NCBI GenBank assembly: GCA_000182565.2 | Contig: KQ257450.1 | Direction: 5' to 3' (one strand) | DNA: 64,000 nt | Origin: Spizellomyces punctatus DAOM BR117 | Taxonomy: Eukaryota | Part shown: piece by piece, positions 34,262-44,857 of the stretch | Layout: the number at the start of each line of letters is the position of its first letter | How positions within the stretch are numbered: position 1 is the stretch's first letter | Translations under genes and position numbers: made by a program | Notes under the pieces: model-generated | What the model was told of the DNA's origin: nothing | Seen by the model: only the letters and a program-made list of their open reading frames with translations | Databases searched by the model: none

Positions 34262-37200
34262 TGTTCTCTCATATGCCATACCAAGTTGGCCAGAAAGAGT
34301 TGTTTGCTTCCTGCTCAAACTTTGTGCATAGATAGACCTTTTTTATTGTAACGAACACTTGTACATAAATTGCATGAACATGTTTTTCATCCTGTCCTTT
34401 GCCGGTCATCATACATAGCAACTTTCTCCTCTATCGTTAACAAAATTACTTTTACTTCAAGAATGGGGTATATGGTGCGTGTTTGATCACTTACTGAAAG
34501 AGACGGCTGAATCTGGTTAAGATCTGTATGGCGAAAATGACTTTGTCCAACTTCCGTGGTTCCAAATGGCTCCTCGTTTCTGAACCTGGGTACAACGTTG
34601 TGGCTACGGCACTGTCATAGCTTCCAAGAAATATTTCAAATTTGTCGCTTGCTCCACCCACGATATCGCCTCGCACACATTGAATGGATGAACGAAGCGG
34701 ACGGCTATGGTAGGCAGTCCATCGTTTTTCCGGTCCGGACTCTGCGGTTATACTTTGGAAGAGTAGACCTTGTTTTTTACACCCGTCATTTGGGTTCAGG
34801 ATGAAGTCTGGTCGGGGAGTAGATAACACCAAAGTAAAATTATGGTTGTGGCCCACTTTGCTATTCGGGTCACTTGCATTAGCAGGATTTATTGGCATAA
34901 TTCAATTCCTGTGCTGCAGCCACCTAGCATCGAACGTCGCTTGGAGTTGGGTTTGGCATTGGGGCTCATGATGTACGTTAAATGCCCTCAAGACATCATG
35001 GTGCCCGCTGTCAACAATCCCGTTCAATGCACCTCGCGGCGGGTATATGGGTCGCTTTCGGATGGACACCGCTATTCATTGCAGTTTCTCACTGTACCTG
35101 CTCTATAAATGAATATTCAATGATGCCACTCGTGGGGACAACGTATACTAAATGCCGAGCATGGATGGGGGACGGGTTGATATTCGGCAAGTCTGCAGTT
35201 CTGTTTGCTGCGGAAGACAGTCTCTCCCTCGTCCATTTTCTGCGTAGTGAATGCAATCGCAGTAGTATCCAGATGTTTGTCTTTCCTTTTGTCATATTCG
35301 TAACGTCAGTCATGATATCTTTTCTTTTCATCCTTTTGTCACATTTGGTTTATGACCAGTGCCAACGCAGCTACAGTCCATCTCAGCCAGGTCCTCCCTC
35401 AGCCCGAAGACATATTGGGTATAGCAGCCGCCCCAGCCAGCGCGATCTGCAGTCCATGCAACCACCCACTCAGGCCCTCCCTCCGCCCGAAGGCATCATG
35501 GGGCATATAGCAGCTGCCCCGCGCCATCGCAGCCCACAGTCCATCTCAACCACTTACTTCAAGAGCGGGGGGCCGAGGGAAGGGTGTCTTTTTATAACCG
35601 AGGGCGACTGCGCGTTTGGGGTTGGCATGCAACGTAAGCTCTTCTCTCGAGAAGACGATGACGTTCTAGTCCCTTGAGAGTAGGACCAATCGACGTTGAT
35701 TCGTAGAACGTACTTACATCCCTGGCAAGGCGACCCGTTTGCGCTCATCTCCTTCTCACTGTTGTCGAGAAGATCAATCACCTAAAGGGTATAATTATCA
35801 GCTCACATTCATCACGAATGCTTAACTTTTATTCCTTTTACGTCTCATTGCGGTCGACCAGGACCCTCATTACGTGGAGAATTTTGAACAGTACCTGTTG
35901 ATATGTTCCATCACTCGTACTTTTCGAATCCAGCTTGTTCTTGGTAATCAGAAGAAGCCGGACTCTATGCACCTTTGCTGGGCAGGCCACATTGGTTATG
36001 CGCAAGCTCGCATACTGACGTGTGCCTACATGTGGTGCGATCATGAAGCTTTATGGCAGGCTTAACATTGTACCATGAGGCTTATGGACAGGAAAAATGT
36101 GTTTCGTCACTATATGATGTACCTGACTGTAGTAATTCAGCAATGTTTGTCGAACATACCAAAGAAGGTTTGCTCTAGACCAAGAATGTTGGGCTTGTAG
36201 ATCCTACGTGAGGCACATAACTTACAGTATCATGTCATTACCTTTGGTCCAAATGCAGATCGACCTGAGAGTCCTTGGATCCCTGCTCCACATGCTCAAC
36301 GTGAAGTTACCATTCCTGATCTTGTTCTTACTTGATGGTACGAATTCGTTTGATTCCCATAACTTTATCAGTTACACCCAGAATAATTAGTTCAAGTAAT
36401 TTTACAAGAGGCTTACCAATACTAACTGTCAACTAACGGTAAGTATCAATATCCTTACTTTAGCATAAGGCAGATGGGTCAATGGTAACAAGAATAGACC
36501 TTCCCCGCTTGACTTGTGCATACTACTCATATTCCCATCTTGGCAGGAACGCTAAAGCCAAAGCATGACACATATGCAAGTTGAGTTGACCTGCTGCTAT
36601 CAAGAAATGCAGGGATAATGGTTTCATGAAAGGGATGCCCATTTGGCATTCACTGTAAGTACTTATGGCGGTGGTAAATTTGATAACTTTACTACTTGGC
36701 CTTGGTAGCGATACTTTACTGTATTCTTTTACAGGTGTACTGAAGAACTTTTGATGATGCCCATAAACCAGCATAGCTTCCGCAGTGGGTTTCGGAATCG
36801 TCAAGTGTTCCTATTGATTAAATTGTCATCTATCGAGTCTATGAAAATCCGCCTAAACGCACACTGGGTATATCGGTCCTATTGCCGAAACTGTTTTTGT
36901 CTCGCTACGTCTCTAATCGGGGGACACATGCAATTACTTGGCCCCGGAAGAGAACTATGTTTTCTTGGGTATACTTTCCGAGGTATACCTCTCGCTATCC
37001 GCGAAAGTCTGGATAGTATCACAAAAGCCACCATAGCTGCTGCCGCTGAGAACACCCTTCCTTTCAGTATTATTATAGTGGATAGGGTTAAGTGTCAGGC
37101 GAGAGTACAAGTTCAATTCTCATTGATCCTAGTCTTGTTCTCTCAAGCGCCGACGGGAGGGGCTTCTGCGTTCGGTGAGGCATTACTGAATAGTAGACTG

Positions 37201-39249: not shown

Positions 39250-39403
39250 CAAACGCTGGGTTATCATCCTGTGATGTGCACCGGGTTCTGATCCTGCGAT
39301 CTGTATTATCGCCAAATGGTGAGGTTTTCGTAGTACAGCTCGGAGCAAACGCTGGGTTATCATCCTGTGATGTGCACCGGGTTCTGATCCTGCGATCTGT
39401 ATT
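39250..39403. repeat. 58-bp direct repeat, two copies (39250-39307 and 39346-39403)
   Basis: caaacgctgggttatcatcctgtgatgtgcaccgggttctgatcctgcgatctgtatt occurs twice. Confidence 0.95.
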
Positions 39404-39580
39404 GGAGCTCTCTCGACGCAATGTCCCCAGAGACGTTCTGTACCACTGGGACAGTATGATGGCACCAATAGAGTCATTCTAGCGCGCTGAGCCAATCGCA
39501 ATCGACCCAACAATGCTCTCAATTGTATATCATGGTGTACTCTCACCGCAGGGGAGTGTATACATGGATCTCAGAGAGAA

Positions 39581-39852
39581 GCTACAGTTGCGCCAAGGCC
39601 GCCAGGCCTTGGCGCAATGGTAGCTGAGCAACGGTAGCAGCGGCTGGTGAGGGGACGAGTTGTTCATGCTGAGGATAGTTCATACGGGGCCTTGGCACAA
39701 CGGTGGCAGTGGATGACAATGTAGGGAATATATGGGGGCCTTGGCACAACGGTAGCAGCGGCTGGTGAGGGGATGAGTTGTTCATGCTGAGGATAGTTCA
39801 TACGGGGCCTTGGCACAACGGTGGCAGTGGATGACAATGTAGGGAATATATG
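39581..39852 (+). repeat. Array of tRNA-Trp 5'-end copies with alternating spacers, led by an inverted copy
   Basis: GGGGCCTTGGCACAACGGTRGC at 39686, 39735 and 39804; further copies at 39605 and 39628 (partial); inverted copy 39581-39600; 118-bp higher-order period. Confidence 0.95.
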
Positions 39853-39924
39853 GGGGCCTTGGCGCAACGGTAGCGCGTCTGACTCCAGATCAGAAGGTTA
39901 TGTGTTCGAATCACATAGGCCTCA
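39853..39924 (+). tRNA. tRNA-Trp (anticodon CCA), intronless
   Basis: Cloverleaf: GGGGCCT/AGGCCTC acceptor, GCGC D-stem, TCTGA-CTCCAGA-TCAGA anticodon arm, ATGTG-TTCGAAT-CACAT T-arm. Confidence 0.96.
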
Positions 39925-39945
39925 TTTACGATCCATGATGCAGCG

Positions 39946-39955
39946 TTTTTTTTTT
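39946..39955 (+). terminator. Pol III oligo-T terminator of tRNA-Trp
   Basis: T10 run about 20 nt after the tRNA. Confidence 0.8.
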
Positions 39956-40047
39956 GGTTTCATTTACTCTGCAACTCGTAACAACCTATCTGCACGTTCG
40001 AGCGGGGCAGCGGTGTTGAACGCCGCAAACTTGCCAACTCTTTTGTT

Positions 40048-40193
40048 TAGACCTGTGGTCCATGACGGTAAGGCCATCGACACCTGGTTAACGCACGCCG
40101 CGCCGTTGAACGGTGAACAGTCCATTGTGATTCATGGCGGCATAGACCTGTGGTCCATGACGGTAAGGCCATCGACACCTGGTTAACGCACGC
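40048..40193. repeat. 51-bp direct repeat, two copies (40048-40098 and 40143-40193)
   Basis: tagacctgtggtccatgacggtaaggccatcgacacctggttaacgcacgc occurs twice. Confidence 0.95.
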
Positions 40194-40502: not shown

Positions 40503-40604
40503 TTGCAACCAGGGCACATCGTAGGCATGGCTACCCACAATGTGCTGTTTTTGCAACCAGGTCACATCGTAGGCATCGCTATCCACAGTGTGTTGTTTTT
40601 GCAA
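40503..40604. repeat. 48-bp tandem repeat, about two copies
   Basis: ttgcaaccagg[g/t]cacatcgtaggcat[g/c]gcta[c/t]ccaca[a/g]tgtg[c/t]tgttt repeated. Confidence 0.9.
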
Positions 40605-41269
40605 ATAGCTCACTTGGGTGATCAATGACCTATTGCATGATCGGTTCAAGATTGGCGCTAACCCTATCTGGTAAAGGCGGATAGTGCGCGACATTTGGGG
40701 TGGGACCGATCGGGAAAGACAATCTGGTAAAGGCAGGTATATTAGTGTGGCATTTGGGAACGATTGGTGTCGTTTACAGGTGACTAGCTACGGGGGGGAC
40801 AGCTTGGACCCCCTGGCTTTTCCCAATCAGTTCCATTCCCGAGCCATCCTTTATCGATCCCCAAACAGTCCAGATAAATATCGTCAATTGTTCCAAAATG
40901 TGGGGGATCTGGGAATCCAAACTCATTTGGCTTTGATCACTTGCTTTGTTGTCGTCACTCACCATTGCTTTTGTTTGGAATTCTACATGCTTGAATCACG
41001 TAGGCCCGATTAACTGTTTGCACTTTTTGTTTGGAAGGACCTCACGCAGAACTCATTCCTTTTTTGTTTACAAAGTGGGCTGGCATCACATGGGCCTCAT
41101 GAAGCAGTGCGTACTTTGCCTTTGTAGGCCTCACTCAACGGTCAACTACTGAAAGACTCGACAGCCTCCGTGCCAGACTAGACTAGAGGCAAGAGGTTAA
41201 TGCTCTCGCTCTAGCCATAGATCCATGACCAGCGTTAGCAGACGAGCATTAGCGATTCATTGCCCTGCC

Positions 41270-41364
41270 CCAAACCCTAAACCGAATCCCAACCTGAACG
41301 CTAACCCTAACCCTAAAGCCTAATCTCAAACGCTAAACTCGAACGCTAACCCAACCCTAAACCC
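41270..41364. repeat. Degenerate interstitial telomere-like (CCCTAA)n tract
   Basis: aaaccctaaaccgaatcccaacctgaacgctaaccctaaccctaaagcctaa...gctaacccaaccctaaaccc. Confidence 0.75.
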
Positions 41365-42982: not shown

Positions 42983-43878
42983 NNNNNNNNNNNNNNNNNN
43001 NNNNNNNNNNNNNNNNNNNNNNNNNNNNNNNNNNNNNNNNNNNNNNNNNNNNNNNNNNNNNNNNNNNNNNNNNNNNNNNNNNNNNNNNNNNNNNNNNNNN
43101 NNNNNNNNNNNNNNNNNNNNNNNNNNNNNNNNNNNNNNNNNNNNNNNNNNNNNNNNNNNNNNNNNNNNNNNNNNNNNNNNNNNNNNNNNNNNNNNNNNNN
43201 NNNNNNNNNNNNNNNNNNNNNNNNNNNNNNNNNNNNNNNNNNNNNNNNNNNNNNNNNNNNNNNNNNNNNNNNNNNNNNNNNNNNNNNNNNNNNNNNNNNN
43301 NNNNNNNNNNNNNNNNNNNNNNNNNNNNNNNNNNNNNNNNNNNNNNNNNNNNNNNNNNNNNNNNNNNNNNNNNNNNNNNNNNNNNNNNNNNNNNNNNNNN
43401 NNNNNNNNNNNNNNNNNNNNNNNNNNNNNNNNNNNNNNNNNNNNNNNNNNNNNNNNNNNNNNNNNNNNNNNNNNNNNNNNNNNNNNNNNNNNNNNNNNNN
43501 NNNNNNNNNNNNNNNNNNNNNNNNNNNNNNNNNNNNNNNNNNNNNNNNNNNNNNNNNNNNNNNNNNNNNNNNNNNNNNNNNNNNNNNNNNNNNNNNNNNN
43601 NNNNNNNNNNNNNNNNNNNNNNNNNNNNNNNNNNNNNNNNNNNNNNNNNNNNNNNNNNNNNNNNNNNNNNNNNNNNNNNNNNNNNNNNNNNNNNNNNNNN
43701 NNNNNNNNNNNNNNNNNNNNNNNNNNNNNNNNNNNNNNNNNNNNNNNNNNNNNNNNNNNNNNNNNNNNNNNNNNNNNNNNNNNNNNNNNNNNNNNNNNNN
43801 NNNNNNNNNNNNNNNNNNNNNNNNNNNNNNNNNNNNNNNNNNNNNNNNNNNNNNNNNNNNNNNNNNNNNNNNNNNNNN
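42983..43878. other. Assembly gap (N run)
   Basis: Contiguous Ns. Confidence 1.
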
Positions 43879-44295: not shown

Positions 44296-44481
44296 CCAGC
44301 CTCATTTTCTGCTCCAAAGTCTGCCATCTGCTTTAATACTACTCCATTCGAAAGTCAATTACAGCGACAATATGACATGGAGGTGCCCAGCCTCATTTTC
44401 TGCTCGAAAATCTGCCATCTGCTTTCACAAAAATCCACTCAAATGAGTGTGAATTGAAGCGACAATATGGACATGGAAGTG
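44296..44481. repeat. Degenerate ~90-bp tandem duplication
   Basis: cccagcctcattttctgctc..aa.tctgccatctgcttt twice, each followed by agcgacaatatg(g)acatgga.gtg. Confidence 0.85.
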
Positions 44482-44857
44482 TAGTATGCAGGTACTACAG
44501 GGTTTTCATCAAATTGTTCTTCATCAGGTAATTCTAGTTTGTCTACCTCTTTTAACACCCAGCGTAATATGGTGCAAAGGAATTTCAACAGAGACTCATC
44601 ACGTCCTGACGCGCGACTAAGGCGAAAGGCCGTATTAGGTAACCAGCATTGCCCACCAGATGTCGACGAAACGCTTGTAGAAACAAAACTTTGGCCACTG
44701 CACAGCTGTATATTATTTAGACGAGAATGCGGACTACCCTTCCTTTCGGATAAGAAGGTTCCACACAGAGTTCAGGCAAGATCGTCTGGAAAGTCAGAAA
44801 AAGGTAGTCGGGGGGCTCACAGCAAGCGCTGAAAGCCCAATCAAAACTTTAGGGAGG

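Follow-up and report, generated by a model that had tools for sequence, protein, structure and literature searches.

In the window analyzed here, a 64-kb stretch of DNA from Spizellomyces punctatus, the single tRNA gene is preceded by a tandem array of units that carry its own 5′ part, and arrays also abut the 5′ ends of tRNA genes of other families in this genome. Taken together, their sequences combine tandem units of flank plus tRNA 5′ part, 5′ polarity, homogenization within loci, sharing between paralogs, and retention of the A box. We put at about even the chance that these arrays began as duplications when the 5′ part of a transcribed tRNA gene suffered a break or a template switch, the units then being amplified through unequal exchange and passed on to paralogs with no selection on the outcome.

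Architecture of the array at the window's tRNA-Trp gene

The gene, a tRNA-Trp(CCA) called by both ARAGORN and Rfam (68.6 bits), terminates an array whose parts are listed in Table 1; tRNA alone was matched in the Rfam search of the locus. Its 20-nt head occurs in five direct copies, starting at 39605, 39688, 39737, 39806, and 39855 (the last being the gene; spacing 83, 49, 69, and 49 nt), with a further partial copy that begins at tRNA nt 12. Spacers of 47 nt (A) and 27 nt (B) alternate as A-B-A-B, and TRF reports a period of 118 (2.2 copies, 97%). When the window was searched for tRNA nt 1–22 with at most four mismatches, five forward matches and one reverse match were obtained, all at the array, against 0.005 expected. 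The original prediction, made from the letters of the window, had described the recurring heads including the partial one, the two alternating spacers with their 118-bp period, and the intact gene at the end, and each of these elements is confirmed. Absent from its description was the palindrome that heads the array: two 21-bp arms (90%) around a 4-nt loop, the right arm being the first head copy and the left arm antisense to tRNA nt 3–22, with a hairpin energy of −38 kcal/mol as RNA and −23.7 as DNA. A single B-box motif, at ~39904–39912 in the gene, was found within the array or 300 nt upstream.

Table 1. Coordinates of array features in the window
Feature	Position	Strand	Remarks
Start of block common to the other two tRNA-Trp loci	39566..39579	+	14 nt before palindrome; 87–88% over 60 nt vs C2, C10
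Palindrome left arm, inverted tRNA nt 3–22	39580..39600	-	21 bp
Palindrome loop, 4 nt	39601..39604	+	
Palindrome right arm = tRNA nt 3–22 head, A box intact	39605..39625	+	
TGA linker preceding nt-12 head	39625..39627	+	same junction after hairpin at two tRNA-Cys loci
Partial head, tRNA nt 12–22, A box incomplete	39628..39638	+	
Spacer A copy 1, 47 nt	39639..39685	+	first ~10 nt decayed tRNA nt 23–31; remainder 5′ flank of type abutting C2 gene
Head, tRNA nt 1–22, A box intact	39686..39707	+	
Spacer B copy 1, 27 nt	39708..39734	+	~10 nt decayed tRNA nt 23–31 + 17 nt 5′ flank
Head, tRNA nt 1–22, A box intact	39735..39756	+	
Spacer A copy 2, one private substitution	39757..39803	+	
Head, tRNA nt 1–22, A box intact	39804..39825	+	
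Spacer B copy 2 = gene's present 5′ flank	39826..39852	+	
Intact tRNA-Trp(CCA) gene	39853..39924	+	ARAGORN, Rfam
Pol III terminator, T10 run	39946..39955	+	22 nt behind gene

Neighbors of the array locus carry ESCO zinc finger, cwf21, mitochondrial carrier, CFAP97, and RMC1 domains, which indicates a eukaryotic, nuclear context. Of the words sampled from 39400–40100, sequencing runs from one sample contain fractions of 0.57, 0.28, and 0.19; these runs were counted neither for expression nor for assembly. The gene-poor surroundings of tRNA-Trp include short direct duplications of 48–96 nt (window 39250–39403, 40048–40193, 40503–40604, 44297–44482, and 35388–35553). A run of ~900 N occupies window 42983–43878, 3 kb downstream of the gene, and N runs also occur near the other two Trp loci and a Cys locus (C1). 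Degenerate telomere-hexamer tracts, possibly healed breaks, lie 0.2–1.4 kb from array-bearing Trp and Pro genes (window 41269–41360; L045 ~1083–1130; L002, reverse; L132 ~1185–1290).

All three tRNA-Trp loci share the array

A genome search with the array, which skips very common words, located three loci: C1 (the window locus), C10, and C2. Each terminates in an intact tRNA-Trp gene, and the palindrome heads the array at all three of the three tRNA-Trp genes found. The array is thus not unique, whereas uniqueness would have counted against the original prediction. Following the hairpin and the nt-12 head, the units run ABAB at C1, ABABAB at C10, and AAA at C2, and the copy number of units thus varies between paralogs. 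The five copies of spacer B are identical. Spacer A carries a change specific to C1 and another specific to C10, in addition to one private change; because each locus-specific change is present in every A unit of its locus, we infer homogenization within loci after sharing between loci. The window gene differs from the C2 and C10 genes by one compensated T-stem pair. Similarity among the loci ends at the 3′ end of the gene. On the upstream side it extends beyond the hairpin by 14 nt for C1 and by ~310 nt for C2/C10. The ~310-nt block includes a T4 run, which favors a DNA template over a Pol III RNA template.

The spacers themselves matched only the three Trp loci in the genome. Six of six shuffling tests for an origin of spacers in the local upstream flank were not significant (p = 0.06–0.94), nor was an unanchored alignment of spacer A to spacer B (Trp p = 0.94, Pro p = 0.10).

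With a 22-nt repeat and spacers of 27–47 nt, the array falls within the CRISPR range, and its layout had been called CRISPR-like in the original prediction. A repeat-spacer memory of this kind is nevertheless barely credible, as is an assembly artefact: just two invariant spacer types are reused at three unlinked loci, they have 0 exact matches in viral contigs, and the 112 ORFs around eight array loci include no Cas-like or integrase domain. Misassembly in particular appears unlikely because unit order is not the same across the three loci and locus-specific variants are present, which speaks against collapse or duplication during assembly.

Most units combine 5′ flank with the 5′ half of the tRNA

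The heads continue into a tail, AG[C/T]GG[C/A]TG, that had been taken for non-tRNA sequence. This tail proves to be tRNA-derived, aligning with tRNA nt 23–31 after a 1-nt insertion; in an anchored test, the start of spacer A matches at 7/9 positions (p ~0.004) and that of spacer B at 6/9 (p ~0.03). In Trp-A, Trp-B, Cys(C1), Pro-B, and Ser-GCU, similarity to the tRNA ends at nt 29–31, the edge of the anticodon loop. Other end points are nt 25 in the 25-nt Cys unit, 27 in Cys(C8), 18 in Thr, and 32, possibly 40, in Pro-A. Heads stop before the anticodon. The Trp-B, Cys, and Pro units measure 49, 51, and 53 nt, corresponding to ~20 nt of flank and the tRNA 5′ half, and judging by these alignments most units are built in this way, from ~20 nt of 5′ flank joined to the tRNA 5′ half up to the anticodon loop. 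Across arrays, units are 20–69 nt long and present in 2–10 copies, and their lengths (20, 25, 38, 49, 51, 53, and 69 nt) show no shared helical phasing.

Arrays recur at the 5′ ends of small tRNA families

We compiled a set of at least 177 distinct tRNA genes in 42 families by an Rfam search and three promoter-pattern searches, and fetched their flanks. Tyr genes were not among the ARAGORN calls; when 15 pattern matches, Tyr among them, were checked separately, a Phe-like cluster was the only place with upstream heads. TRF arrays with a period of at least 15 abut the 5′ end of 10/176 genes (Trp 3, Cys 2, Pro-CGG 2, Thr-UGU 2, Ile-UAU 1), compared with 1/123 within 60 nt of the 3′ end and with 0/153 control tiles in which an array stops at the corresponding position (Fisher p = 0.03, with genes of one family not independent). 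The third Cys gene and one Ser-GCU gene have one decayed head each. Arrays occur in five of the 42 families, four of which multiply the A box, and they are confined to families of at most three genes (5/22 vs 0/20, p = 0.049, with family sizes being lower bounds). The idea that other tRNA genes might carry arrays of their own 5′ ends therefore holds for Cys, Pro-CGG, and Thr-UGU, and the suggestion of a tRNA-linked satellite is supported. As to a centromere or subtelomere link, several array loci lie near contig ends and others do not.

Both tRNA-Pro(CGG) genes (C7 ~1288.8 kb, L132/L175; C14 ~401 kb, L164/L176) are preceded by 9–10 units of 53 nt that carry nt 1–32, alternate between A and B types, and decay distally. 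At nt 31 the C14 gene has G, like the array units, and the C7 gene has T; the G may stem from array-to-gene conversion. The tRNA-Thr-UGU arrays (L016, L017) are G-rich minisatellites of 19–21 nt built from nt 1–18; the third gene of this family (L028) lacks an array and differs in its 5′ sequence. At tRNA-Ile-UAU (L125/L104), the 38-nt units consist of flank with no tRNA head, the second gene has a single unit copy, and a B-box-like motif appears in alternate units (background 1.7% per 78 nt; noted post hoc).

The tRNA-Cys arrays comprise 25- and 51-nt units and a hairpin (three Cys loci: L018, L019, L020, L079–L081). Among 179 ARAGORN calls, hairpins of at least 15 bp within 450 nt upstream are found at the six Trp and Cys genes only. 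Read by eye, the left arm of the Cys hairpin matches old flank plus tRNA nt 1–10, and the succession of hairpin, TGA, and nt-12 head occurs at Trp and at two Cys genes. The Cys loci also have several decayed 5′ pieces up to ~3.7 kb upstream and 3′-half pieces with B boxes downstream. Inverted-repeat pairs lie upstream of Cys genes (L079 5835–7172, 341 bp, 83%; L080 6742–8581, 76 bp, 99%), with no Pfam domain between the repeats; these are possible non-autonomous DNA elements.

Sharing between paralogs is likewise one-sided in most cases. A common 60-nt upstream flank was detected in 7/39 families with at least two genes (score ≥20; null 99th percentile 11), five of which share it across contigs, and a common 60-nt downstream flank in 0/39. 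Cys paralogs are also alike downstream, at 78–80% over 100–260 nt. Elsewhere in the genome, whole but degenerate genes resembling tRNA-Lys and tRNA-Phe form tandem clusters at L037 (~700–1200, reverse) and L368, and five loci (L309, L315, L381, L382, and L389) have A and B boxes at tRNA spacing with atypical sequence between them, possibly representing other Pol III RNA genes.

Less likely origins: a mobile element or an RNA template

The positions of the junctions bring a site-specific mobile element into consideration. Either a Dada-like transposon or an element whose integrase swaps out the 5′ half of the tRNA could insert at the A box or anticodon loop and leave duplications and palindromes as footprints. 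Dada transposons are described as acting at tRNA nt 8–13 and around the anticodon loop (PMC3706591, PMC8869645), and the junctions here cluster at nt 11/12 and nt 29–32, within the two regions reported as Dada targets (PMC8869645). Trp and Cys have the hairpin, TGA, and nt 12 in common, many decayed tRNA pieces lie within ~3 kb of the Cys loci, and heads ending at nt 29–31 in five unit types resemble what an integrase element would leave upstream of the gene that it restores, namely a displaced 5′ half that stops in the anticodon loop. Dada transposons, however, are reported as multi-kb DDE elements that interrupt and break the gene and produce 6–7-bp duplications (PMC3706591); nothing alike was found here, where the duplications cover 11 to ~32 nt of tRNA plus flank and have no common element end. 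Hairpins and spacers are family-specific and confined to these genes, and no element domain occurs in the 112 ORFs around eight array loci. A search for tyrosine recombinases (PF00589) gave 0 matches, with a control positive in 14/14 genomes, although intron-split genes could be missed. Furthermore, Lys, Ile-AAU, Phe, Asn, and Arg-UCG genes share nt 8–13 words with Cys or Trp, yet have no arrays. We therefore regard an element of this sort as quite unlikely, and the repeated target-site duplication by an integrating element put forward in the original prediction finds no backing in the ORFs, the recombinase search, or the position of reverse transcriptases (RTs), the closest of which is 29 kb away.

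Other element searches were as follows. A Starship-captain search (PF11917) gave 0 matches and its control was also silent, and a KDZ search, run without a positive control, was empty. The closest RT match lies 29 kb from any of 11 loci, and the spacers have no A-rich 3′ tail of the kind expected of a non-LTR retrotransposon. A dispersed MITE or Helitron end was rejected, the Trp and Cys upstream blocks having matched only loci of their own families. Fanzor is reported to cut the non-target strand after base 16–17 and the target strand after 20–21 (PMC10432273). A CATA motif is present at −5 to −2 of the Trp-A and Pro-B junctions, but the published cuts would fall at tRNA nt 15–16 and 19–20 and not at 11/12 or 22/23, and a Fanzor scar was rejected as well.

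The extent of the units, from ~−17/−23 to nt 30–31, comes near that of a pre-tRNA 5′ half, and the genome is rich in RTs (83 matches). Conceivably, a pre-tRNA that still had its leader was cut in the anticodon loop, and its 5′ half was copied into DNA and inserted upstream of its own gene. Such RNA-templated insertion is very improbable in our judgment: the shared blocks extend hundreds of nt past any A box and across a T4 run, the units have no dispersed copies, the Ile array is flank only, and no CCA or poly-A marks were seen.

Most complete units retain the A box

The A box follows the consensus TRGYnnAnnnG, which is kept in 48/49 complete units; the nine of 58 units left out of this count as partial or decayed all fail it. 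Twelve distinct changes fall in nt 8–18, of which one breaks the A box and 11 sit at tolerated positions (p = 0.004 under a uniform model, 0.013 under a transition-biased one); three are CpG transitions. Because seven of the 12 lie in nt 10–13, a strand of the D stem, the preserved feature of the units looks like a promoter rather than a tRNA fold. None of the nine arrays contains an internal T4 terminator run, which would let Pol III start at any unit and transcribe as far as the terminator. In predicted folds of 5′-extended precursors, the native acceptor stem is part of the MFE structure for 4/5 start points, with a pairing probability of 0.31–0.62. The original prediction of stacked A boxes served by one B box is supported at the sequence level only.

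Given that 48 of 49 units have the A box, a role as Pol III "spacer promoters" is conceivable, if rather unlikely. On this tentative account, extra upstream A boxes would share the single B box of the gene and raise the output of low-copy tRNA genes, either by loading more TFIIIC/TFIIIB or by offering alternative starts, with RNase P removing the long leaders that result. Besides the tolerated changes, the uninterrupted arrays, and the predicted acceptor stems, the confinement to families of at most three genes speaks for it, as does the motif in alternate units of the head-less Ile-UAU array. Weighing on the other side are the omitted units that fail the A box, the CpG transitions among the changes, the 17/22 small families without an array (sizes again being lower bounds), the difference in unit copy number between paralogs, and the distance of distal A boxes, which reach ~575 nt from the B box. 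The arrays might then be Pol III counterparts of rDNA spacer promoters that raise or tune low-copy tRNA output through stacked 5′ copies with an A box or, in the case of Ile-UAU, through B-box-like repeats, having arisen independently in at least five families and been passed between unlinked paralogs by recombination; we consider this possible but rather unlikely. Selection for spacer promoters is compatible with the same mutational origin as duplication scars.

A proposed duplication model for array formation

Formation by duplication at the 5′ end of Pol III genes, the reading that we favor, can be set out in four steps. First, a break or replication template switch in the 5′ part of a heavily transcribed tRNA gene would tandemly duplicate a segment of ~50 nt, from ~−20 to the anticodon loop, and the whole gene would persist as the last unit; fold-back synthesis at the broken end would make the 21-bp palindrome. 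Second, as the sequences show, unequal exchange has expanded and homogenized the units in each locus, yielding the observed A/B dimers and locus-specific variants. Third, upstream cassettes are common to unlinked paralogs, a pattern that recombination primed in the tRNA body could produce: a strand would enter from the 3′ side, switch to the paralog within the tRNA body, copy upstream, and return. With the switch placed there, upstream cassettes would move and downstream flanks would not. Fourth, units with an A box would be preferentially kept or re-amplified because factor-bound promoter DNA stalls forks or breaks, which would require no benefit to the cell.

In favor of these steps are the 5′-side polarity, the common unit geometry, homogenization within loci, decay of distal units, and copying between loci. 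Yeast tRNA genes are reported as fork-pause and fragile sites (PMC7073672), and inner 5′ flanks of tRNA genes as hypermutable (PMC6130373). Tandem duplications from staggered breaks and in-cis templated inserts made by Pol theta have also been described (PMC5730883, PMC8355091). This genome has a POLQ-like gene (L396, C3 ~788–795 kb) with HTH_61, POLQ_helical, and DNA_pol_A domains, a candidate for DNA polymerase theta.

Several observations count against the duplication model. It leaves unexplained that arrays occur in only 5/42 families though all tRNA genes are transcribed, and that Trp and Cys have an identical TGA/nt-12 junction. The spacers are not traceable to local flank, and the breakpoints are not uniform, as the Cys, Thr, and Pro-A end points illustrate. 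The downstream likeness of the Cys paralogs speaks against strictly one-sided copying. Moreover, A-box retention and confinement to small families fit selection at least as well. Retention would need either selection for more promoter or a feedback in which factor-bound units are re-duplicated; the two are not separable by sequence, and we hold the unselected version to be the more probable.

Relation to known systems

The common assumption is that the supply of a tRNA follows the number of its genes and that the flanks of tRNA paralogs drift apart quickly. Repeats of the rDNA spacer have demonstrated enhancer activity. If the tRNA arrays act on transcription, they would constitute a copy-number dial for Pol III genes, and would supply a natural series (2–10 units, some with the A box and some having lost it) for gauging the distance and the number of A boxes that a single B box can serve. 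If they are neutral, they would be a clean record of polar 5′-side instability at tRNA genes, as well as of satellite seeding from Pol III promoters, a question left open in the account of SINE-derived satellites (PMC10702118).

When metagenomes were scanned with a generic pattern, at least 122 stretches matched; 80 of them were examined, and two of these 80 had a tRNA call. At one locus (L215), eight tandem copies of nt 1–22 directly precede a tRNA-Thr(CGU) called by ARAGORN; unlike the Trp array, this one has no spacer and no hairpin. This locus indicates that heads with an A box have been amplified outside this genome as well. Six other metagenome loci, read by eye, are A-box/D-arm minisatellites that end in SINE-like or degenerate heads. 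Across L184–L263, many minisatellites with periods of 13–52 nt derive from the tRNA A-box/D-arm word, and several end in SINE-like heads.

The array described here is real and genome-wide, and related phenomena are already known from plastid trnF stacks (PMC3786074) and SINE-seeded satellites (PMC10702118). In the open-licence literature, we found no description of arrays like these at nuclear tRNA genes and common to several paralogs. The plastid trnF(GAA) pseudogene arrays of Solanaceae and Brassicaceae are reported to consist of 1–7 tandem partial copies of 32–73 bp (PMC3786074). They too stand directly 5′ of a functional tRNA gene, vary in number, and arose repeatedly, yet as described they are plastid and single-locus, and mainly keep the anticodon domain and rarely the acceptor stem (PMC3786074). 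The arrays reported here, in contrast, stand at Pol III genes of the nucleus. What they retain is the 5′ acceptor strand together with the A box, and they involve several isoacceptor families and are common to unlinked paralogs.

Squamate SINE-derived satellites offer a second parallel, in that they are described as tandem repeats of a portion of a tRNA-related Pol III element, in which the terminal unit is longer and completes the element, subvariants alternate, and units are homogenized within loci (PMC10702118). Those satellites derive from high-copy SINEs, with units of 70–290 nt at up to thousands of loci (PMC10702118), whereas the source here is a tRNA gene rather than a dispersed SINE, and the terminal unit is an intact tRNA gene of a 2–3-gene family. 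Finally, subrepeats of the rDNA intergenic spacer are likewise promoter-derived repeats upstream of an RNA gene, with a number reported to vary by unequal exchange (PMC3036644). rDNA spacer promoters are external Pol I promoters in tandem gene arrays; the arrays here instead place predicted internal Pol III A boxes in front of dispersed genes.
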